Source: Tricharina praecox (Eukaryota). Taken from it: a DNA stretch of 64,000 nt. The notes beneath the pieces are model-generated. The model was not told the DNA's origin. It ran no database searches and worked only from the letters and a program-made list of their open reading frames with translations. Each line of letters opens with the position of its first letter. The first letter of the stretch is position 1. A program made the translations under genes and the position numbers. This document shows, in pieces, positions 1,375 to 60,107 of this stretch. The stretch spans positions 1,612,001-1,676,000 of the forward strand of contig NW_026250405.1 of NCBI RefSeq assembly GCF_024521635.1. The letters run 5' to 3'.

Positions 1375-3498
1375 CTAATAGACACCACAGAGCTCCGGAT
1401 GCGCCGGGTTAGTCAAGCACAGCGTCTGCGCGCTGCTATAAGACGGCCTGAACGGCCCTTCCGCAATTGCAGTCCTGCCCTTGCCAGCACACTGCTTCGC
1501 TCCGCTGAGTGCCATGTTCCTGAATACCGTACCGGATATCACCGAGTATCCAGGGAACATGCCATGGTCGGGGTACTTGTCGGAGATGACCATGGCGCAT
1601 CCGCAGTTTTGGTACACGACACACCAGTTATTGAGGATAGTCACGCCGTCGGCGGCCATTGTTGTGCCGTGACGCACGCAGTTCTTGGCGGGGGTTTGTG
1701 TGGTAATCATGGATACTTTGGAGAGACGTTGGCCTTGAACGGTGATACTGAAAATATGTCAGCGGGCTAAAAACCAGCGGGGACAGGGATGGGTGCTTAC
1801 GAGCCGAATGACCAAAGACAGTCTCTCATATCAGCTACACCACCACCATCGGTTCGTGTCTTGCTACAGGCGATCCTTCCATCGGTCTTGCGGGGAAACT
1901 CGGCAGCTATCAAGGGAGATACGCCGGCGGGGTCGGGAATGGGATCGCCGCCGCACGTGGTTGATGCCTTGTGGTTGATATCAGCTATAGTAACATGAGT
2001 CATTGCACGAAGATGACTTACTCGGATTTGAATGCGGAGTTTGATGGTTGAGGTTCCGAATGGTACTTGACCTCTCAGTGTAATCTCTCCTGCAAGTGCT
2101 ATCAGTACGGGCATCTTCTAGCCACGGGAGGAATCCTGTTACTTACTTGCTAACGGGTTCCGTGGCACGTCAAAGTTGATAAAATTCTTGTCGCAAGAAG
2201 CCCCAGGGCTTGAAGGGGTATTACTCATACTCCACCCAGTGACAGAATCCGAATGTGCCTGGATAGTAGCCCCATCCATAGAGATTCCGTTTGCCGGGCC
2301 AACATGCATCAGAGCGAAGATATTGACGGTAAAGTGGGTTGCTCCCGAAGCGATAGTAATAATTTTGGTGGCGGCGAAATTCCGAAACTTACCGCTCCAG
2401 TCGCAGTTACCGCTAGTGGTGGGTGTCTGGCCCGAATCGGGAATACCACTCGGCTTAGGAACGGCGGTCGAGTTGGGGACACCACTCGACCTTGGAACCG
2501 TGGTGGACTTGGGAGTACCACTCGGCCTAGGAACCGTGGTGGACTTGGAAATAACACTCGACCTTGGAACAGTGGCGGACTCGGGAGTATTACTCGACCT
2601 AGGAACCGTGGTGGACTTGGAAGTACCACTCGACCTAGGAACTGTGGTGGACTTGGAAGTACCACTCGACTTAGGAATGGTGGTGGAATTGGGAATAACA
2701 CTCGATCCAGAAACCGCGGTTGAAGCTGTAGAAAGTAGCTCTATACAGTTGCCGACGGCCTCTTCATCTATTAATTCTTCGTCTGTGCTTGCATCTAGCG
2801 GCGATGGCCCAGGAACTGTGGTGGACTTGGAAACACCACTCGATCTAGGGACCGTGGTGGAACCGGCAATACCACTCGAACTTGGAACCGTGGTGGACTT
2901 AGAAACACCACTCGATCTAGGGACCGTGGTGGACTTGGAAGTACCACTCGACCTTGGAACAGTGGTGGACTTGGGAGTACCGCTCGACTCAGAAACCGTG
3001 GTCGAAGCTGTAGAAAGCATCTCTATACAATTGCCGGCCGCCTCCTCATCTACTAATTCTTCGTCTGTGATTTCAGCTCGTGGCGCTAACCCTGCGACGG
3101 GGAGCGGGGAACCAGGCGAGACGACGATGGGGGGTCTAACTAGTTGTTAGCATGCATCGTCATTCGGAGAAGACCAAGTCCACTCACGATATCGGAGGAA
3201 AATCCGCCGCGGAACAGGACTCCGAGTAAGATGACAACAAATCCGTCGGAATTGGGATTGGAATAGAGCGAGGGAGAATAACTGGCGGGCCTCCTGGGAA
3301 GTTTCCGGCTGTCGGAGCTATGGCAGGTACGGCGATTGTAGGGCTGGGGGCCACCTTCGGGGTTACAGTGGTAATTCCAGATGATTGATCAAGAGGAAAG
3401 GCATGAGTAGTGAGAGAGAGGAACGAGAGTGTGAAGAAGAAAAGAATGTGTGCAGCGGTAGGTGCACCGAAACGGCTACGTGGCGTGAAGGGAATCAT
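1375..3498 (-). CDS. Secreted protein (~635 aa) with Ser/Thr-rich 12-aa tandem repeats, a beta-rich middle domain and a Cys-rich C-terminal domain
   Basis: Five exons join in frame: 3498-3188, 3135-2147, 2089-2022, 1967-1801, 1747-1375. Donors are GTGAGT/GTAAGT/GTAAGT/GTAAGC, with CTAAC/CTGAT/CTGAC branch sites and AG acceptors. N-terminal signal peptide (HILFFFTLSFLSLTTHA-FP); 9 Cys in the last ~150 aa. The model unites four separate ORFs of the track. Confidence 0.8.
2440..3000 (-). repeat. Coding 36-bp minisatellite (STTVPRSSGTSK-like unit) in two blocks
   Basis: Repeating ACCACTCGACCTAGGAACCGTGGTGGACTTGGAAGT-like unit on the + strand. Each of the two arrays is preceded by a TDEEL(V/I)DEEA(A/V)GNCIE(M/L)LSTAST module. 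Confidence 0.9.
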
Positions 3499-26152: not shown

Positions 26153-26488
26153 TTCTCGTCGGAGAATATTAAATTACTTCTAGAGAATTTCCGCATTTCT
26201 TGCAAAAGTCGGCCGATCCCCACAGTTTGCCGATCCCTACCAATCACGTTGACCAAGTGCTGGCCAACGCCAGACCGATCTGCATCCTCCTACTCCCTCA
26301 CCACCAACGACTTAGCTTCACACACACCCACACCCCCCAACCACACCAATCCTGGATCATTTCTGCTTTTTTCTAAGGCCGTGAGAAGGGGATATCTCGT
26401 TTATAACGAACCCCACCCCCCCTACCTACACACCCCATCCCGGTGGTTAATACCCATCAACAACAAAAAAACTCAATAGCATCCAACC

Positions 26489-27607
26489 ATGACAGGACGT
26501 TCCAGATCACGAAGGCCTCCTTCGCTCGACTTGTCGATGTCGTCCCGCGGTTCGTCGCGGTCGGGATCACCTGAACCAGAGAGTGACGACGAGACCTCAC
26601 AGCAGGAGTCTTGCTGCGAAACCATCGACGACCGACCACGGGAAGGCGAACGGATATTCCCATCCGGTCCCTACTGCTTCAAGCAACCCACCCTCGCCGA
26701 CGTACTATCCGACAAAGCACCTCCACCATACTCACTGACGGCATTCATGGCATACCTATCGCAGAACCACTGCCTCGAGACCCTCGAGTTCACCATGGAC
26801 GCCAGCCGGTACCGCAAGCACTACAGCTCGATCGCCTGCCCCAAAGACCGCCAGTCCGCGCCGAGTCAGAAGGATTGCGCCACCGTCCGAAAGCTGTGGC
26901 AGAGGCTCCTGGACGCCTACGTCGTTCCCAATGCGCCCCGCGAGGTCAACCTTCCTTGCAACATTCGCGACCAGATCCTCTCCGTCCCGAACCACCGAAC
27001 ACCACCACCACCAGAAGCACTCGAACCAGCAGTCAAGATCGTTCATGAACTGATGCAGGAGAGCGTGCTTGTTCCATTCCTCAGCGACTGTCAGCAGCAC
27101 CACAACACCTTCGTCTCCGAGTCGAGTTGCCCTACTTCTTGGGGAGGTAACGCGTCGGACGAGAGCCTTTACATGCGCGGCTCCCTGGACGACAGGATGC
27201 TCCGATGCCGTCGCGACAACTCGCCGCCGAGCCCCGTCGACTGCATGTCCAACTCGTACCCGACCATCGCTCCTCCTCGCATCCCACGTACTACCTCGCC
27301 GTTCTCGGCCGCATTGGGCTGGCATCACCATAGCCGCCAGTCATCGAGTCATCAGCCGACAAGCAGCTGGGCTAGTAACGCCAGCGGGGACAGCATGACG
27401 ATGATTGAGGATTCCGGCTCCAGCACTACCAGCTGGGGTAGCCCCATGACACCGCCAACCACGCCGCCTGCTAGCGAGATGACCCGAGGCCATTCACCCA
27501 GGAGCTCCGTCGACAAGGCCGAGAAGGGCTGGAAGCGGGTGACTGGAGGGTTGGGCAGGGGACTCGGATGGGGAAGGAAGAAGCCCGAGCACGGAAGCTA
27601 CTGGTAA
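26489..27607 (+). CDS. rgsA: Regulator of G-protein signalling, RgsA-like (372 aa)
   Basis: PTLADVLSDKAPPPYSLTAFMAYLSQNHCLETLEF...LWQRLLDAYVVPNAPREVNLP...ELMQESVLVPFL is the RGS box of the Aspergillus RgsA-type family. C-terminal PMTPPTTPP motif; good start context (CAACCATG). Confidence 0.92.
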   Translation: MTGRSRSRRPPSLDLSMSSRGSSRSGSPEPESDDETSQQESCCETIDDRPREGERIFPSGPYCFKQPTLADVLSDKAPPPYSLTAFMAYLSQNHCLETLEFTMDASRYRKHYSSIACPKDRQSAPSQKDCATVRKLWQRLLDAYVVPNAPREVNLPCNIRDQILSVPNHRTPPPPEALEPAVKIVHELMQESVLVPFLSDCQQHHNTFVSESSCPTSWGGNASDESLYMRGSLDDRMLRCRRDNSPPSPVDCMSNSYPTIAPPRIPRTTSPFSAALGWHHHSRQSSSHQPTSSWASNASGDSMTMIEDSGSSTTSWGSPMTPPTTPPASEMTRGHSPRSSVDKAEKGWKRVTGGLGRGLGWGRKKPEHGSYW

Positions 27608-36766: not shown

Positions 36767-39700
36767 TACCGTATGTAAGGCGAACGGAAAATGCGATTGA
36801 ACAACTGCCTAGCTGCCTAGGTATTCGAAGCTGGAGGGGTGGGGAGGGTTGAGGAGAGTGGATGATGGAGGGTGGATTCTGCAGGCTGCACAGTGCTGCA
36901 GGCTGCATCTCGCCAGCCAATCAATCCATCGTGATCCGCAGCAGTGCAGCAGCAGTGCAGCAATGCAGCAATGCAGCACTATCCATCCAGCGAGCCAATG
37001 AGTTCGTCACCACAGGCAGGCCGTCCATCGAAATCGCCAATCACAATAAACAGCACCGCACCGCACCGCACCGGCATGCTAGAGTGCCAAGGTACCCAGT
37101 CGTTGACGAGCCACCAAGACGGGAGCCACTTACATACGGTGCAGCCCAGATGCAGGCAGGGCCCGAACTGGATTTTCGGAGTCGCGGCCGAGGACTCGAG
37201 CTGGATGGTTGTGGAAGGTTCGATGCCATGTTTTCCTCCTCTCACCCCACCCCCTTCTCCCAGGGAAATGCAATCAATCGGGGGCAGGGGGAGTACTGTA
37301 CCCGCAGTGTGGCGGATACTGTACCGTACCGGTACATACAACAGTGAACACTCGATGTCATGTGCCATACATACTAGTAGCCTACCGTACATACGGTATC
37401 TACATGATTGCACGCACGCAGCGCTGGCCGACCAAGCCCACACCGGCAACTCTCGGCTTCCAGCGGTATGTAAGCAATGAGATGTGCACAGGCCCGATTG
37501 GAACGGTTCGAATGCTGATGGAAACAGTGTAGCGATACCGATGGAGCCAGCCACGGCCCGCGCCGTTGCGGCTTGGAATGTCCATTGTCCAACGAGAGTA
37601 ACGCCCGCCGCCGAGCCACTTATCCGATGAGGAATACGGTAACTCACTGGCGAGGAGCCAACAGATGATGCATACGGCATCAACCTGCCGGCTGGGAGTG
37701 TATGTACAATACAGTACTCACATGCGACTACACAAGGCTTGGTTAGTCAGTTAAGTGCTGGTCGTCCCCCTCCAGGCTCCCCCCGCTTTTCCGCCTCCGG
37801 TGCCACTGGCGTGCGGCGTGGCGTACGTATGCGCGCCCCAGTCTTCTGGGTACCGTAGTTGTTGGATTCACTGGCGGACAGGCAGAAGATAGCAATTTTT
37901 TGCGAGTCTGATAGGCGTCCACGATGGCGGTGCTAACTAACTAATACCGGTAGGTATCGCTAGCCCCCCATGGCTTAGAATCTTAGATACTCTCGAGATG
38001 GCATTTCGCCAGCCCGATCCTTCACAGCCGGGCCGCGTTGTCACCTGGGCTGGGGCCGGAGCCTGCTCCCCCGCGCGCCCCCGCGTATGGGCTTTCGGAT
38101 TTCCTACATACACACCTGGCGCAAGTTCGGTCTTGTTTGTTAGCCGGCCCCCCTCCCCCGCCTCCGCCTGTACATACTTTACTTTACTATCATATCGCGC
38201 GTGGTGCTGGTGCTGGTACGTACGAAGTAGGTTACGTGGGGCCAATTACTTACCCCAGACTTCGAAAGCGCACACTCCAAGTCTGGGGGTCTGGGGGAGG
38301 AAAGGCTAGGACAACATGTCCTACAAATAGGTATATCTTATCTTCCCTTCCCTCCCCCCCCCCCCCCCCCCCCCCACAGCGCCCCCGCGCAGACTGCAGT
38401 CTGGTACATACGGTCTCGCGGGGTGCCACTGCGCTGTGTTGTACTGTGCTGTGCTGCCTGCTAGGTGACGTACATACCTGCTTACCTGTACAATACATAC
38501 TACATACTACATGTTCTTACAGTTATGTATGTGTGTGTGTAGGTAGACGTAGCGATATAATGCTAAGGGGATGCGTTTCCCGCAGAGACGTCGACGTAGC
38601 ATGAGCAGCAGCAGTGTGGACGTGTAACAGTTACCTGGTGGTGAATCGAGTTGAGTTGAGTGTTCGCATCCTCCCGTCGGAGCTGGCAGTTGCCAGTATG
38701 TACGTCCAGATTGCTAATCGATTCGGCGCAGGAAAAACGACGAATGGAACGTACGTCGTAAACTGCAAGGCTACTAGAGCTACAGCAACGTGCCAGGGAT
38801 TCCGAGCCACCACTACCATCGTCATCATCATCACCGCCGCCGCCGCCGCAATCATCAATCACCATAGACACACGAGAATTCGGAATGATCATATCGCAGT
38901 GTCCAGAGTCCACGCTGTACCACAGCTCCTCTGCACGCTGCACTGGCGATCTCGCAGCGATCTCGCAGCGAGCGAGCTGGTGCGAGCTGGTCCGCACTGC
39001 GCGATGCCGAGGTCGAGGTCGAGGCGTCGTCGAAAGAAACAGATTACGGCAACGGCCCACTGGCACATTACAGTACAGTACAGTACACTGCAGCGTTCTG
39101 TTTGTGTTTGTGTTCCTTCGGGTCTCGATTGATCGCAGCTAGGGAGGGAGGGGGGGGGGGGGGGGAGGGGGGGGGCGATGCCACTCTAGAAACAGAAACA
39201 GCACGGTCACCAGAACACGCGCCCTCAGATCTAGATGGCCATTCATCTCCCCCTCCTGTTCCTCCTCCTCCTCCTCCTCCTCCTCCGAGTTGAGGTTTGC
39301 CACCGCGAGCGAGCGAGCGACGTGATGCTGTGCGCGAATTTCCGTTCTCCTTCCAAGAGCCCAAGTTCCAGTTTCCAGTTTCCCAGCCCATGGTGCCCAC
39401 CCCGCGTCCATCGTGTCATGTCACGGCATGTCATTGGCAGATAATATCTCCAGGTATGTATGTATGTATTGTACAGTATGTACGAGCACATACGGCCACC
39501 AGCGGCCAACCAATGCAGCCAATGCAGTTAGTGGTTGGTGGTTGGTGCGTGTGTGACACGCCTCGGGTTACCACTGGCTCAACTGTATCGATATATACCA
39601 GATAGGTAAGCATCTATCCAATCAATCATCCATCATCCACAAACCCAAACATAGGTCAAGCCTGCACCTGCCACCGTTCTTTTCGATGGATGGGGGTGAC

Positions 39701-40576
39701 TAGGTACTTAGGTAGGCAGCTGTGTGGAAAGAAAAGAAACCGCCCACCCATCCCGCACCAAAATTGAGCTCACGTACGTTTTACTACGCCGGAGGTGACT
39801 TGTACAGCATCGGCAGTAACATATACCGGTATTCAGCGTGGACCGGACGTCACGTCAGGATCAGAAACACACGGTGTACGATGTAGATCACAGATGCGTG
39901 TCCATTCACTCTATAGGGTCCTCTGCAGGGTCTGCAAGCTCTGCTGCTCAAATACCGATGAAATGTTCGAGTTGTTGCTTTTGTGGCGGCGCGGCGGGGA
40001 ATGATCCGACCCGAACACATGATAGCACTCGCTCGTGCTGGACACGTGAGCGGCGAGAAAAGTGATATGTACTCGAGTACAGTACATAAGTACGCTGTAG
40101 GTAGTAAATTGTGAGTGACTCGACCGCTATGTACATACATCTGGAGTGTAGTTAGCCCGGACGTCTTCTCCAATGTTATACACATACCTTATAGTAACTA
40201 TTGAAGATCGTCCCTCTGCCCTTCGCATGATAGGTATGCGCTCTCGGGAGAAGTGCGTAGTTTCTCCCAGGCACGTGGTCATGGAGTGTCTGATCTGTTG
40301 AACATGAGACCGACCGACTAGACTAGACGAACATAAAAGCAGCAGTCGAGAACATTTCAAAGTTGAGCGACCGCCGACCGCATTGGGTGTGCCCGCCATC
40401 ACACCCTGGTCCCGCCATACCGCCGCCTTCCGCTCCCCGCAACACAAAGCCGCCTCTGTCCCCGAATGCCACACGGGTTGGAAAGACTCAGGAGCTGTAC
40501 TAGTACTATGTCTCTTATCTTTTGCCGTGAGAAACAAAACGGCAAAAATGAGACACCTCAGTATCTTATATAGACA

Positions 40577-40656
40577 TGATTCAGCCGGGATTTGAACCCG
40601 GGTCGGGCGCATATTGCGGATGGCAAGCGCCCATGATACCCCTACACTACTGAATC
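40577..40656 (-). tRNA. tRNA with anticodon GCC (nominally Gly), 9-nt intron; copy 1
   Basis: Exact reverse complement of 42340-42419. T5 run about 30 nt downstream. Confidence 0.88.
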
Positions 40657-42339
40657 TGCTGTATGCATCTGATGCATCTAGTGTGATGACAGACGAGAAG
40701 TATACCATCTGAGGCTGCTCGTCCATGCACAGACGGCGTTGTCTCCCTGCCCGCAAGGAAACCAACGAAACCCCCAGCGTGGACAATCCAGCCAGCCAGT
40801 GTATGGCGCAGTGCACATCCGAGCATCGGGACATCCCGGCGCACCACCTCGCCGAACGTTCAGTCTGAGTCCAGACAGACAAACACAGGCTAACTACAGC
40901 ACGGCCGGCCGGCCGACACATCGCAGATCTTCCTCGCACCATTGCGCACATACCATTGGCAGAAAACCTCCGACTGGCTGCGTACATTGCATCTGGAGCC
41001 AGCCACATCCGCTCGCACCACGTCGCCATCAAGGGATTCGGGAAACGAATTTTTCGAACGTCAGAGATGTCTGCAGGATGGGATCGATTGCTCGTATTCC
41101 ACGTCCGGCACCGACGCTAGGTACTGACCGCTGGTAATGGTGGTGGTGGTGGTGGTGATACGGCGATGGGCTCCGGATGCGGTGAGTCCGTGTGTTAAGT
41201 GGCCAACTGCTCTGCCCATGCTGCCCATCCACAGACCAATCAAATATACCTAGGTCCCAGAGTGATGGCTTGTGCAGCTGTACTCTCCATACCTACCGGG
41301 ACGTACTCTAGTTACCTATGCCTCGTCACACTACTACATATCCGGATTCCACAGCTCGAGTCCGTTCACCAAAAAGGAACCCCCCCCCCCACCCGCCGAC
41401 CAAAGGAGTATGATGATACTTCCGAGTGGGTGCAAGGTACCTAATCGCAAAATCTCCTCCATCCTGCGGATGAAGCTATGTACATAGCAACATCGGATGG
41501 ATCCCACCCCAACCGCGCAGTGCGCGCTTAAGATAATATCTTAATATCTCTCTCTAGCATCGTACCGTACCGTAACGTACGTATGCAGGCTCTCGCCCCG
41601 CCCCGCCGCGGTATATATGTACTCGAACATTAGGCACATAAGTAAGCTACAGATACAGATACAGATACAGATACGGATACGGATACGGATACGGATCTTT
41701 GTTCCAGCTGGTGCAACTTGCAGATTAAATTTATATCTACATACTTGAACCGTTGTCTGGTGATGGTGGCGGTGATGGGAGGTTGTGGGCGTGCGCGTGG
41801 ATATGGTGGTGGTGCTGGTGGTGCGCCTTGCAGGACAGTATTTGCCGATAACTAGATACGGCCTGCATTCACGACCCCCCCCCCCCCCCTCGCCGATGAT
41901 GTCGGGCGACGTGGTGCGAGCGGACGTTGCTGGCTCGAGATGCATACCTACTATACGCAGCTAGCCAGCCAGCCAGTCGGAGGTTTTGCAGCCAATGCAG
42001 TGGTCACTGATCCTACGAGGAGGATCTGCGATGCGCCGGCCGGCCGTACGGTGCTGTGTCTGATTGTCTGAACGTTCGGGGAGGTGGTCTTTGGAGTGCC
42101 GGTATACTGTATCCCGAATGCAGATGCGACTCGTGAGGCGCACGGAGTGATTAACTGGCTGGCTGCGGGCGGGCTTGTCCGCCGGTGGGAAGACTGGGTT
42201 TCTGGGCTTGCAGTAAAGCAGTGGAGTGGTGGTTGGGGAGACAGAACGCCGGCCGTGCATGGATGGGTAGGAGGTATAATACATAGGTTGGCTTTTTCAA
42301 CATCTGTTATTGCACTATATGCGAGAAACGCATACACAA

Positions 42340-42419
42340 GATTCAGTAGTGTAGGGGTATCATGGGCGCTTGCCATCCGCAATATGCGCCCGACCCGGGT
42401 TCAAATCCCGGCTGAATCA
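42340..42419 (+). tRNA. tRNA with anticodon GCC (nominally Gly), 9-nt intron at 42376-42384; copy 2
   Basis: Cloverleaf: GATTCAG/CTGAATC acceptor stem plus A73; D arm GTGT-AGGGGTA-TCAT; anticodon stem GGCGC/GCGCC with loop TT-GCC-A^T; intron TCCGCAATA at the canonical 37/38 position; variable loop CGAC; T arm CCGGG-TTCAAAT-CCCGG. Mature body is 71 nt. Confidence 0.88.
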
Positions 42420-42814
42420 TTTCTATATAAGACAGTCAGTGTCTATCTTTTGCTATTGCTATTTTGGTTCCCAGGCAGATTTCAAAGGGTTTATTGCACT
42501 TCACGTGCAGCGTTTTCGACATTTCTACATAGTTGGTTAGGCAGGCAGGTCTTCGGTGGCGCTTCTGTCCCAGCCTCCAGCCTCGGGCGACTTCGAAGTT
42601 TGTTTTTAGATCGCCCCTATATCGAGTCTCGACCGCGAGCGTAAGCATTTTGGAGCAAACTCAATCGTGATATCTCCCCCACACAAATAGCATCCAGTGA
42701 GAACCGTGATGAGTTTGGGGGATCATCGCGACAAAAAGAAACGAAATCATTCTCGCCCTCGATGAATGGGTGGCTTGGAAGTTCCCAGGCACTACGAATC
42801 ACAATCACGTCGGC

Positions 42815-55200: not shown

Positions 55201-56199
55201 CCTCCCCGCCCTTCTGCATCCTAACCGCCCGACCCATCCCCCAATCCGTCGTTGTCTCGTCCTCGAAGGAATCCGATCTTCCTCTCCGACTCCGACTGCA
55301 ACTCCAACTTCAACTTCAACTCCATCCCTATACACGCATCACCTACTCGACACGACTCTTACGACGAACGAAGCTTGATACCTCGTGGCCACTGGTTGGG
55401 CCGATCCCGTCGCTCTTTCGTCAACTCGATCCCGCTCAATCGCTCGCGAACCGCATCTCACATTCCCCACTTTAGCTTCCGTAGCAGAGACTCAATCCGT
55501 GGAAGCGCTGGGAGGATATCTGGTTGTCATATTTTCAGGTGGTTGGACTACTGCCCGCATTTGCTACACACGACGACGTTGGGGAACCTGAGTTATCGTG
55601 CTTCGGGAAGGGAACACTGACACCATCACCCATCGCCTTCGCTGCTGCTGCCGCCTGCACGATTCCGGTACTCCCACCCGTCAAATTGCCACACTCTCGT
55701 GCACGACTCCACGCTTCGGATCGCATAGACGGCCGTCGCAACGCGAGATAACTTTGCTCTCAACGGGTACCCGCGTCATCATCGTCGTCGTCCGCATTGG
55801 ATTTTTCGCTTCCGTTTGGAAACTTGCCTTCGTAGTGTGCTTGTTAACAAGTCCGTGGGCACACACCAGAAAAGGAAAAAGGAAAAAGAAACTGGTTCAT
55901 TGGAACCGGGGTGGAGACATTGCTCTCGAGTCAACCCAGGCCTGTCCGCTGTCGTCGTGTGAATACCCCTCGGTGCCCGCGGGCGAAAAAAATAAAAATA
56001 AAAATAAAGCTGTGGTATGCGATGATTCTCCGATGAGGTGGTGGAGGGACCAGGAGAAGGTCCGTCCTATATTTTTGTGTATCACGGGAAGCTTACGAAC
56101 CACTGGGGACAAAAGCAGCATCTAGTGTCGTCTCCACTCGGCCCTTGCTACGAATGACCAGTTGCTCGATTGTCGATTTCGAAGTCGACGCCCAATAAA

Positions 56200-59100
56200 A
56201 TGGACGATACATCCCAACCATCACAGCGTACCAGCATTTACGTTGTTGCGCCTCTGCGGATCGAAAAAGGGAAGAGGAGTACGAGCATCACATCACGAGG
56301 CTCGGGCTCACAGAAGTCGAGACCTCGCAGTCGCAACCACTCGCACAACCGTTCCGCCGGCGGTCATTCACATTCTTCCTCAAATCAACAGATCACCCCT
56401 CCTCCTTCACCACATCCACCTTATGGATCATACACGGACCCAGAGATGTCGCCAGAGTTCCATCCTTTCCTACGAGCGTTCTATCCATTCCACCCCACAT
56501 ATTCGAGCAATTCGACAACAGTAACATTACCACTTAATGCCGGGGATGTTATTCTGGTGCATAGTGTGCATACCAACGGATGGGCCGATGGCACCATGTT
56601 GAGTTCTGGCGCGCGAGGATGGCTACCGACGAATTATTGCGAATCGTACGAGGCGATTCACATTCGAGCGTTGCTGAAGGGATGCTTGGAGTTGTTTGAG
56701 CAGTTCCGTGCAGGCTCGGTCAATCAGATCGCTGTCACTGGCATCCTGGCCGGTGTGAGGCATTTGCTGGTACGTGCACTCAATCTATTTGTTACCAAAA
56801 TATACCCCCCCCCCCCCCCCTCCCCGAGAAACGGATCGACGGATGAATGGACGAAAAATTAATAAATTTGCTGTGAGCAGGAATCAACCGAATGCCTCAC
56901 GCGCGAGGCAGACATTGTGAGATCCAACGATGCGATCCGAAAAGCTCGCAAAGTGGTGCTTAACGAGCTCTCCGGACTGGTCAAGACTGCCAAGAAAATC
57001 AACAGCAAGTGCGGGGATGATGTCGTTGACGAATTGATCCTGCGGAGCTTCAAGATCGTCGTGCGCGGGGTTCGTTTCCTAGACGTATGGTACGACCAGT
57101 ACGAAATCACGGAGAGCTGTGCGGGCGATTTCGACGAAGATGATTACCTGAACGACAATTCAGTTCCGCCCACACCTCCGTGTGATTCGCTCGCTTCCCG
57201 ATCGTCGAGCACGGCTGGGTCGGACGCCAATGCTGGCGGCTATTTTAGTCCGCAGTCTGCAGACCGCGACCAGATTCGCTATACCCCGACTCGCCGAGTA
57301 GCCAGTGTGAAGACAGAATCCCATCCTCTACCGTCCACACCTTATACTCCGGCCCCACGTGCCAATGCGGACGAACATCTACGTCCGCAGAGTATCGAAC
57401 TTGCGTCCCCGCAGCAGGTCTATGCGCTGGCACGACTCAACACCACGCATGATGTATTACTATCTTATCTAGGATCATATATCGGTCGTATCCACTTGCA
57501 GGCGCGGTTTACACCCCAACTGCAACTCACACAACAACAGTCGGTTGCCGCAGCCCGTGATCTCCTTGCTGTCGTGGAGGCCGTTTACGCACGCGATCCC
57601 CGGGCTGGAGCTCTCGAGACAGCGAAGGAGGCTCTTTACCAACGAATCTCCTCGTTAATTTCGGCCACCAGAGAGGTTGTTTCGAATCGGACGGAGGAAG
57701 ACATGGGCGAGGACGAAGATGGAATCTTGATTCCAGATGGGGGAAGGAGTTTAGTGGAAGCCGCCACTGGGTGTGTCCGGGGGGCGGGAGAGTGTGTTGC
57801 GAAGTCGAAGTTCGCGATTGAGCGGATTGGCGACTTTGTCTTGGAACCAGCAGCGCTCAACATTGGTCTAGGTATAACTACCGACCCAGTGGAGGCGGAA
57901 GATGCCTTGGTGCCAGCTTGCGAAACACAACAAGAAGAAGTAGCTGCTGATGCGCCCACGCAAGAAGAAATCGATCGAGACCTTATGCCCCCTCCCCCAA
58001 CACCCGACAAGATTCCTCCACCACTACCACCCAAAGACTCGCCCGCACCGCCGCAAAAAGACTCCCCACCACTACTCCCACTCAAGGACTCCCCACCACT
58101 ACTCCCACGCAAAGATACATCACTACTACCACCCAAAGAAATCACACCACTTTCGCTCGCTTCGACCACACCCGCATTAACCGTAGATACTAGTGTGCGA
58201 TCGTCAATAACATCATCATCGACGGTTGCTCCATCTTCGCCCGTCGCTGCCGTGCAGCAGCCCACCGCCTCGCGACGGTCGTCTACCGCTTCGTCGCTTT
58301 CACCTCCTATGCTCAATGTTTCACCCTCGAACATCCAAGGTGAATACTGCGTGGAAACCATCCGAAAATCCTTCAACAAAAGCGTTCGGGCCGATAGCAT
58401 CGGTGCCGAATCTCTCGCAGCAACAGATTCTACCGGGGTCAACAGCGTCCGGGGATCCGAATTTAGCATTGTTTCACAGACGTCAACGAGAGCAACCACA
58501 CCCGAGCCTCTTTCCTCTACAAGCATCGACACCCCGATTCTCTCCACCGAGCTGGCGCTGCTCGGAAGCAGTCAAGTTTCCCTTGCTAGTGGCTCCGGCA
58601 GCGAATACCTGTCGGAGTCGCATGCAGAGGACTTGACATTTAATAAAGACGGGCAGATCACCGGTGGTACCCTTCCAGCCTTAGTGGAAAGGATGACCGT
58701 GCACAACTCTACTCCCGATGCGGTCTTCGTTGCGACGTTCTACCTCACCTTCCGACTATTCACGACCCCTCGCGACTTTGCCGAGGCATTGGTGGACCGC
58801 TTCGACACCGTGGGGTCGGCACCGGGTGCCACCCCTGTCCGACTCCGCGTCTACAACGTTTTCAAGGGCTGGTTGGAGTCGCATTGGCGAAACAGTGTCG
58901 ATGGCGATGCACTCGAAATCATCATATCATTCGCAGGCATGCGACTGAAGGAAGTGTTGCCTGGAGCTGCCAAGCGACTGCTCGAGCTTGCCGAGAAAGC
59001 CGCCTCCGTCGACGGACCCCTGGTTCCTCGCCTGGTTTCGGGCATGGGCAAGACCACCTCTTCGTCCACCACCTACAGCGTGCCCGAGACGCCCATCCTG

Positions 59101-60107
59101 ACTCCTGTCATCACAAGGAGCCAGCTCAATGCCCTCAAGGGTGCCCTCGGGCCTAACGGGGTGCCAGTGAGCATTCTCGATTTCGACCCGTTGGAGTTGG
59201 CGAGACAACTCACCCTCAAGGAGTCACGGATGTTTTGTTCGATATTGCCTGAAGAGTTGATTGCCCAGGAATGGACTAAGAAGAGTGGATCATTGGCTCA
59301 GAACGTGTTGGCAATGTCGTCGCTTTCTACCGACTTGGCACATCTCGTTGCCGAAACCATCCTCGACGTCCCAGACACCAAGAAACGTGCGGTGGTGATC
59401 AAACACTGGATCAAGATCGCCGACCGATGTCTGGAACTCAACAACTACGACTCCTTGATGGCTATCATGTGCACGCTGAATGCGTCCACGATCTTGCGAC
59501 TCAAGAAGACGTGGGAGCTGGTTTCGTTCAAGACAAAGCAAGTTCTGGAGCATTTGAGGTCGGTGATTGATGTTTCGAAGAACCATGCCGTGCTCCGCGC
59601 ACGGCTACGGAGTCATGTACCGCCTTGCTTGCCGTTCCTTGGAACCTATCTGACCGATGTATGTCCCATCTCACTGCTATATTGAAGGATTAAACTAACA
59701 TGCTCCAGCTTACCTTTGTGGACGTCGGAAACCCTTCCAAGAGACCCTTGTCTATCGACGGGTCGACCAAGCAGCTCATCAACTTCGACAAGCACATCAA
59801 GACTGCACGGATCATCTCGGAACTCCAACGATTCCAGATTCCATACCGGATCCAGGAAATCCCTGAGATGCAGAGCTGGATCGACCAGCAGATCGACCGG
59901 GTCCACAATTCGAAGGCGGCCGATGTTCAGCACCTTTACCGACGATCGTTGCTCTTGGAACCCCGCGAAACCCAGACCCAGAGGCCGACAAATACCCCCG
60001 AAGTCCAGACTCCGCCCCCACCGCCTCCGCAGGTAATCCCGAAGGAACACTCCGCAAAGTCGGATCTGTTCGCGTGGGCACATGTGTTTAGAGCTCCCGT
60101 AAATTAA
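56200..60107 (+). CDS. bud5: Bud5/Cdc25-family Ras guanine-nucleotide exchange factor with N-terminal SH3, REM and RasGEF domains (~1248 aa)
   Basis: Exons 56200-56769, 56881-59658 and 59709-60107 join in frame. SH3: FLRAFYPF...VHSVHTNGWADG...RGWLPTNY. REM: GGTLPALVERMT...FYLTFRLFTTP...VRLRVYNVFKGWLESHW. RasGEF: FDPLELARQLTLKE...LNNYDSLMAI...PCLPFLGTYLTD|LTFVDVGN...LINFDK. The Bud5 rather than Cdc25 assignment is my judgement from the motifs. Confidence 0.9.

Follow-up and report, generated by a model that had tools for sequence, protein, structure and literature searches.

How do two tRNA genes stay identical to the last letter while the DNA around them comes apart? The question is raised by a locus in a 64,000-nt stretch of contig NW_026250405.1 of Tricharina praecox (positions 1,612,001 to 1,676,000; this whole stretch is called the window below), in which two intron-bearing nuclear tRNA-Gly(GCC) genes point away from each other on the arms of a diverged inverted repeat. 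The answer we favour, at a probability of about 0.75, is that the locus is an ordinary local inverted duplication of a tRNA gene (tDNA): the two genes would have been kept by selection, the ‘islands’ of similarity upstream of them would be the longer match runs left by the decay of presumably neutral flanks rather than separate functional elements, and gene conversion is not needed.

Two identical genes on inverted arms

The pair comprises the following features, with coordinates counted from the first letter of the window:

40523-41027, minus strand: arm A; the gene is flanked by about 370 nt on its 5’ side and about 54 nt on its 3’ side (blastn, gapped alignments)
40544-40548, minus strand: TTTTT at +29, the first run of at least four T 3’ of copy A and a likely RNA polymerase III (Pol III) terminator
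40577-40656, minus strand: tRNA-Gly(GCC) gene copy A, 80 nt including a 9-nt intron (ARAGORN; Rfam RF00005; identity to copy B)
40612-40620, minus strand: intron of copy A, which occupies gene letters 37-45 and separates tRNA positions 37 and 38 (insertion in the Rfam alignment)
41028-41904, no strand: spacer of 877 nt, rich in microsatellites (TGG, TACAGA, C runs)
41461-41502, no strand: imperfect palindrome of 34 nt, 79%, at the pair’s centre of symmetry (E 8e-5 within the spacer)
41905-42477, plus strand: arm B; here the gene has about 435 nt of flank on its 5’ side and about 58 nt on its 3’ side (blastn, gapped alignments)
42340-42419, plus strand: tRNA-Gly(GCC) gene copy B, 80 nt including a 9-nt intron (ARAGORN; Rfam RF00005)
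42376-42384, plus strand: intron of copy B (insertion in the Rfam alignment; minimum-energy fold)
42448-42451, plus strand: TTTT at +29, the first run of at least four T 3’ of copy B, with another at +43; a likely Pol III terminator

Both copies score 50.6 bits against the Rfam tRNA model (gathering score 29), with model positions 1-71 of 71 covered and, according to ARAGORN, the anticodon gcc at gene letter 33; at gathering score, Rfam finds these two tRNA genes and nothing else in the whole 64-kb window. Compared letter by letter with a script, all 80 nt are the same. The genes are separated by 1683 nt (40656 to 42340) and are divergent. ARAGORN, Rfam, the script and blastn together bear out a preliminary description of this DNA, which had reported two identical intron-containing tRNA genes pointing apart on inverted arms. 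The perfect identity of the arms stops just outside the gene, with mismatches at -2, -3 and +2. To judge from their letters, both copies are probably active, since each appears to keep the requirements of a type-2 Pol III gene: a cloverleaf that is intact, with its D-arm and T-arm sequences, and the T-run at +29. Judged by eye, the D-arm and T-arm letters agree with the A and B box consensus at 9/11 and 10/11 positions. The first T-run lies at +29 in these copies (T5 in A, T4 in B), as against within about 12 nt in most of the 55 other loci with this gene that are described below.

The arms (40523-41027 against 42477-41905) align over 596 columns at 67% identity (E 4e-59, blastn), and blastn found no third copy of the arm within the window. 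Between them, the spacer shows no arm-to-arm homology save the 34-nt palindrome, and past the outer ends of the arms the two sides do not align. The central palindrome could be what is left of the original junction or could be due to chance; it is the sole trace of a full palindrome with a decayed centre, nothing else in the spacer being collinear. The earlier phrase ‘~1.9-kb imperfect palindrome’ is thus right about the inverted arms and loose in its noun, given the 877 nt of unrelated spacer.

Library or assembly errors are able to create inverted duplications, and in principle a fold-back or a chimeric join could have produced such a structure. The arms, however, are 24-33% diverged with many indels, unlike any fold-back artefact. 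A single Logan contig of sequencing run X1 (1668 nt) spans 40697 to 42365 and departs from the window by 4 letters and 3 gaps, and further X1 contigs link each gene with its own outer flank, although X1 is possibly the window’s own sample and to that extent lends the structure no independent support. Runs X2 and X3, from close strains (1-4% differences), gave contigs covering parts of both arms and of the spacer. The structure is probably not an assembly artefact, an explanation that we regard as extremely improbable.

A transposon with long inverted ends was also considered and rejected: the window holds no other copy, the depth of the flanks in X1 is that of single-copy DNA, and there is neither a clear target duplication nor a transposase or reverse-transcriptase domain. 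Next to arm A, at 40300-40475, many short contigs match at 80-90% likeness; the idea of a dispersed repeat was dropped here in view of the 80% threshold, the C-rich character of the stretch and the lack of a second copy in the window. In filamentous ascomycetes, repeat-induced point mutation (RIP) mutates duplicated sequence, and the diverged duplicate of about 0.5 kb described here resembles RIP-mutated duplications in this respect; unlike them, it shows no dominance of C:G to T:A transitions. No RIP signature was found in the upstream flank, with 54 transitions against 69 transversions and no C-to-T bias, and the G+C content of the duplicated segment (53-54%) is the same as that of its surroundings, so RIP is not the cause of the divergence.

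A multicopy gene with a locus-specific intron

To place the pair within its gene family, we used a scan of metagenome contigs with a pattern of the gene core that left the intron free at 6-30 nt, so that identity of the core is by construction. The scan returned 55 loci. Judged by flanks and introns, we take these to represent about 23 distinct ones, a good number of which were recovered from two or three samples. Outside the pattern, the 3’ acceptor strand is identical to that of the window in 55/55 loci and the 24-nt 5’ part in 50/55 (one substitution in 3, deletions in 2), which supports the earlier claim that both genes are strongly constrained. An A/T-rich acceptor stem seemed odd for glycine and had led us to consider an unusual tRNA, but it was found in all 55 other loci and is therefore the normal form of a multicopy gene; that candidate was rejected. 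Runs X1, X3 and X5 contain additional copies (records 6, 18 and 32) that share the exons but have a different intron and dissimilar flanks; those in X1 and X3 deviate from copy A at the intron (40612-40620) only, and that in X5 from copy B at 42376-42384 only. Read depth in X1 is 81-94 in the tRNA bins, as against 7.3 for the arms and flanks. The tRNA-Gly(GCC) gene is thus an ordinary multicopy gene, presumably under strong selection.

The introns tell the loci apart. We counted 27 variants among the other loci, 9-18 nt long, with each locus carrying its own, and the gene core with the exact intron of the window had 0 matches in the metagenome contigs. The preliminary description had named many identical dispersed copies as an outcome that would speak against its reading; this is the case for the exons, which are the same at many loci, and not for the gene as a whole, this intron variant having been found nowhere else.

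The position of the intron is well defined. Just past the anticodon, the Rfam alignment has 11 letters where the model has 2, which amounts to a 9-nt insertion, and since a T directly follows the intron in all 27 variants from other loci, position 38 is fixed and the intron falls at gene letters 37-45. In the minimum-energy fold, intron letters 4-7 are base-paired with anticodon-loop positions 32-35; pairing between anticodon and intron is the rule for eukaryotic tRNA introns, according to the portion of the review by Phizicky and Hopper (2023; PMC10275265) that was available. The site between positions 37 and 38 is likewise the canonical one (PMC10275265; Yoshihisa, 2014, PMC4090602, likewise available in part), as are the complementarity of letters 4-7 to positions 32-35 and the antepenultimate A facing U32. 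In its length of 9 nt the intron differs from those of budding yeast, for which the same parts of these reviews quote a range of 14-60 nt. Our literature search turned up nothing specific, either for the introns of fungal tRNA-Gly or for inverted pairs of tRNA genes in filamentous fungi.

One of the other loci, recovered three times (L018, L030 and L045, at about 2960-3100), carries the intron nearest to that of the window, two letters apart. It has a late T-run as well (T5 at about +27), a 3’ flank that aligns weakly to that of the window (about 83% over 127-133 columns including the gene) and, immediately 5’ of the gene, a partial copy of the tRNA 5’ end. This locus may be the nearest relative of the window pair in another organism.

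Local duplication of this tRNA gene recurs in other genomes. Tandem pairs of it lie 3.4 and 3.8 kb apart in the metagenome loci L001/L002 and L053/L054, with similar introns and almost no flank homology left. Of the 55 loci, 25 were scanned with ARAGORN; none of these had a second tRNA gene called within 3 kb, and 21/25 had a single gene. This is weak evidence, because the program’s bacterial mode misses or misreads intron-bearing genes, calling no gene in 4/25 loci and a tRNA-Gly in 3/21.

Upstream islands and the decay of the flanks

Four stretches upstream of the genes stand out when the arms are compared:

40988-41027 and 41905-41944: island of 40 nt, 93%
40963-40980 and 41970-41987: island of 18/18
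40906-40936 and 42016-42046: island of 31 nt, 90%
40843-40863 and 42068-42088: island of 21 nt, 95%

These had been described as islands separated by indels. The named islands are real, and a first, global alignment gives the impression of islands amid noise, yet the flank does not consist of islands only: when the upstream flanks are aligned alone, with gaps, homology is nearly continuous. In that alignment, the 348 ungapped columns are 76.4% identical, 16 gaps take up 110 columns, and the longest run of matches is 20.

We compared this pattern with a simulation of neutral decay, in which two descendants of the arm B flank received uniform substitutions and indels of the observed length spectrum and were realigned with the same MAFFT settings (150 replicates per setting). 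The best-matched setting gave an identity of 0.746 (0.764 observed) and 109 gap columns (110 observed), and the observed value of each measure of clustering was reached as follows:

Longest match run (at least 20): 34/150 replicates
Best 40-column window: 42/150 replicates
Letters in runs of at least 15: 27/150 replicates
Letters in runs of at least 10: 36/150 replicates

For the same four measures, the first setting tried, in which indels were fewer and identity was lower, yielded 27, 30, 14 and 19 of 150, and the islands look unusual only under settings with an identity clearly below that observed. The clustering of matches thus lies within the neutral range, with no excess over neutral decay, which is the outcome that had been named beforehand as speaking against the islands; the earlier view of them as unexpected is not supported, the observed clustering having been reached in 27-42 of the 150 matched neutral replicates.

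The islands were not found by blastn in any of the 55 other tRNA-Gly loci; 15 of the 129 matches in that run lay outside the tRNA, all of them in TGG or C runs with E of at least 1.4. Together with the lack of an Rfam family and of excess folding stability, this speaks against the co-duplicated non-coding RNA (ncRNA) that was also proposed earlier and against a general upstream element; a regulatory or ncRNA reading of the islands is not supported. About one in 16 of the strain variants listed falls in an island, too few to give power on constraint.

Protein-coding arms were considered and rejected too. The three differences in the 40-nt island share one codon position and would be silent, but the other islands lie off that frame, and indel lengths are mostly not multiples of three. 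Because the indels break every frame and Pfam found no match for the open reading frames (ORFs) of 329 and 190 aa that run through the arms, these long ORFs are not coding. G+C by codon position gave no coding-like pattern in the arm ORFs, a measure that separates coding from non-coding sequence poorly in this window.

Taken together, these data allow a simple proposal for the history of the locus. A unit of about 0.55 kb would have been copied once, in reverse, to a place about 0.9 kb away; it would have consisted of the intron-bearing tRNA-Gly(GCC) gene between some 370-435 bp of 5’ flank and about 55 bp of 3’ flank, the latter including the T-run. The flanks would then have drifted apart through substitutions and many small indels, while purifying selection would have kept both genes letter-perfect, as it appears to have done at many dispersed loci. 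The intron could have stayed the same simply as it has just 9 nt, four of them paired with the anticodon loop. Local duplication is an accepted source of pairs and small clusters of same-type tDNAs in eukaryotes, according to the part of Bermudez-Santana et al. (2010; PMC2888827) that was accessible to us. The window pair resembles the pairs described there in that its members carry the same amino acid, stand side by side and antiparallel and have flank homology that marks local duplication. It departs from the clusters as defined in that part, which require a gap below 1000 nt (here 1683 nt), and from most of the pairs, which are parallel, whereas this one is divergent.

Conversion, a functional flank or a boundary

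Several observations weigh against this proposal. The simulated alignments have fewer gaps than the real one (13.0 against 16), and the decay of the flanks is not quite uniform: the distal 228 ungapped columns are 82.9% identical, as against 64.2% for the proximal 120, a change point that was reached in only 11/150 and 5/150 simulations (Fisher P 1.7e-4, for a split picked after seeing the data). Upstream of copy B, the window has an exact match in a contig of run X5, whose classification as RNA is a guess; this contig is a lead, not evidence of transcription:

42057-42252, no strand: 196-nt contig of run X5, no difference to the window (the RNA label of the run is the tool’s guess)

As for the intron, that of the window equals none of the 27 variants in other loci, and the probability that 9/9 intron letters would remain unchanged by descent is 0.018 at the rate of the proximal flank. 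In 18 orthologous pairs of metagenome loci, the intron and position 38 differ at 3/221 letters and the flanks within 400 nt at 230/13949, so the intron changes about as fast as the flanks.

The points on the intron invite the idea that arm-to-arm conversion keeps gene and intron identical, with flanks too diverged to take part. The near flanks are only 64-76% identical beside an unchanged intron, each of the about 23 other loci has an intron of its own while this one is shared by the pair alone, and two inverted copies 1.7 kb apart have a layout that would permit intrachromosomal conversion. Yet the probability of an unchanged intron rises from 0.018 to 0.089 at the overall flank identity and to 0.18 at that of the distal flank; four of the nine intron letters are kept in place by their pairing, and if selection holds these, the probability is higher again. 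The arms cease to be perfectly identical at -2/-3 and +2. A conversion tract would have no reason to end at the borders of the gene, whereas selection acting on the gene would leave just such a pattern. Nor do the strains point to exchange between arms, as 4 of 7 strain variants at alignable positions have the state of the other arm, where about 0.42 per site would be expected without conversion (P 0.33). Finally, the introns of the tandem pair L001/L002 are near-identical (one inserted letter) although only 172 columns of 81% homology are left there, which shows that introns can outlast their flanks without an inverted layout. The preliminary description was therefore right that the intron is unchanged, and its step from there to conversion is a weak one. 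Conversion or some other homogenisation is possible and not needed, and as the explanation of this locus we consider it unlikely. Separately, strain X3 differs from the window in arm A at three positions within 16 nt (40802, 40805 and 40817), all reading like arm B; these could be recent changes in the window lineage or very short, patchy conversion, in a count that is too small to tell.

The gradient along the flank and the X5 contig would fit a distal flank (about -150 to -435) that is a co-duplicated functional unit, a promoter or enhancer module or an ncRNA, selected in both arms. A CCAAT motif follows the 18/18 island in both arms, and the sole mismatch of the 21-nt island reads like the other arm in X2/X3, which makes it 21/21 there. 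Against such a unit stand the neutral range of the clustering and the lack of an Rfam match, together with distal-flank folds no stabler than shuffles (z +1.36 and +0.10), in which 3 of 37 predicted pairs change on both sides, a comparison of two sequences only. The islands are in none of the 55 other tRNA-Gly loci, and the X5 contig, with its guessed label, covers one arm only. In the rest of the 2.4-kb region, X5 has only tRNA (another copy, with a different intron) and pieces of 38-69 nt at 40302-40426, which carry 3-7 other letters.

The gradient also has a simpler candidate cause. The flanks of active tRNA genes mutate faster, as described in the part of Thornlow et al. (2018; PMC6130373) that we consulted, and raised mutation beside the two genes may account for it, though in part only, since in the published data the effect reaches no further than a few tens of nt. 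In keeping with it, the metagenome orthologues differ at 56/1789 letters of the 5’ flank within 100 nt of the gene, as against 100/5152 at 100-400 nt (1.6x, P 0.005); their 3’ flanks show no such near-gene gradient. The system in that part of the paper and the present locus share an invariant gene body with the adjoining flanks as the most diverged part, and in the metagenome orthologues also a 5’ side more diverged than the 3’ side. They differ in reach, about 20-40 nt in the animals and Arabidopsis treated there and about 150 nt upstream for the less conserved zone here, and in kind, the published data being comparisons between species and ours one of two paralogous arms. A functional distal flank thus strikes us as improbable.

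The surroundings of the pair bear on a further possibility. The neighbouring genes are the following:

26480-27607: ORF with an RGS domain
56158-59685: gene with SH3, RasGEF_N and RasGEF domains

The second of these was earlier named bud5; its domain architecture is presumably more like that of Cdc25-type Ras exchange factors. Between the two, from 28.2 to 56.1 kb, 0 of the 61 stop-to-stop ORFs of at least 110 aa reach the Pfam curated cut-off, in keeping with the earlier label of ‘gene desert’, and no transposon domains were found in this interval (28200-56100), which has a G+C content of about 50-58%, many microsatellites and runs of G or C. For intergenic DNA of a filamentous fungus, if the organism is one, about 28 kb is unusually long. 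Several microRNA precursor models match, below threshold, to G-rich and CTC-rich stretches of hairpin-like character within it (38284-38372 and 39142-39290); the best reaches 41.5 bits where the gathering score is 97, and low-complexity artefacts are the most likely cause.

The tRNA pair (40.5-42.5 kb) lies near the middle of this interval. In yeasts, tDNAs and binding sites of the Pol III factor TFIIIC act as barriers, and the divergent pair might serve as a TFIIIC/Pol III chromatin boundary between the RGS and RasGEF gene domains, all the more as two intact tRNA genes stand midway in about 28 kb without Pfam-detectable coding sequence. The likeness to the yeast boundary elements, intact tRNA genes between two gene domains, extends to position only. 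A duplication suffices to explain the pair in full, and in 21 of the 25 other loci scanned the gene was called singly and in none with a second, within the limits of the ARAGORN mode noted above; a role as boundary is therefore quite doubtful. Bolder still, the distal flank could be a working unit duplicated with the tRNA gene, a Pol II promoter or a short ncRNA of which the 196-nt contig would be a trace, that would, together with both Pol III genes, organise the middle of the 28-kb non-coding interval between two signalling genes; we would give such an arrangement only a slim chance.

In summary, an ordinary local inverted duplication accounts best for the pair, and its significance beyond annotation is small. 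It carries a caution for work of this kind, since match runs in decaying flanks resemble conserved islands to the eye: islands seen in a comparison of two copies should be set against a neutral simulation that includes indels before any regulatory role is claimed for them. As a side result, the survey provides a small catalogue in which the exons of the glycine tRNA are constant over about 23 loci and the short intron is specific to each locus. The locus itself is a clean example of an ageing inverted tDNA duplicate, with the gene body frozen, the intron carried along and the flanks dissolving.

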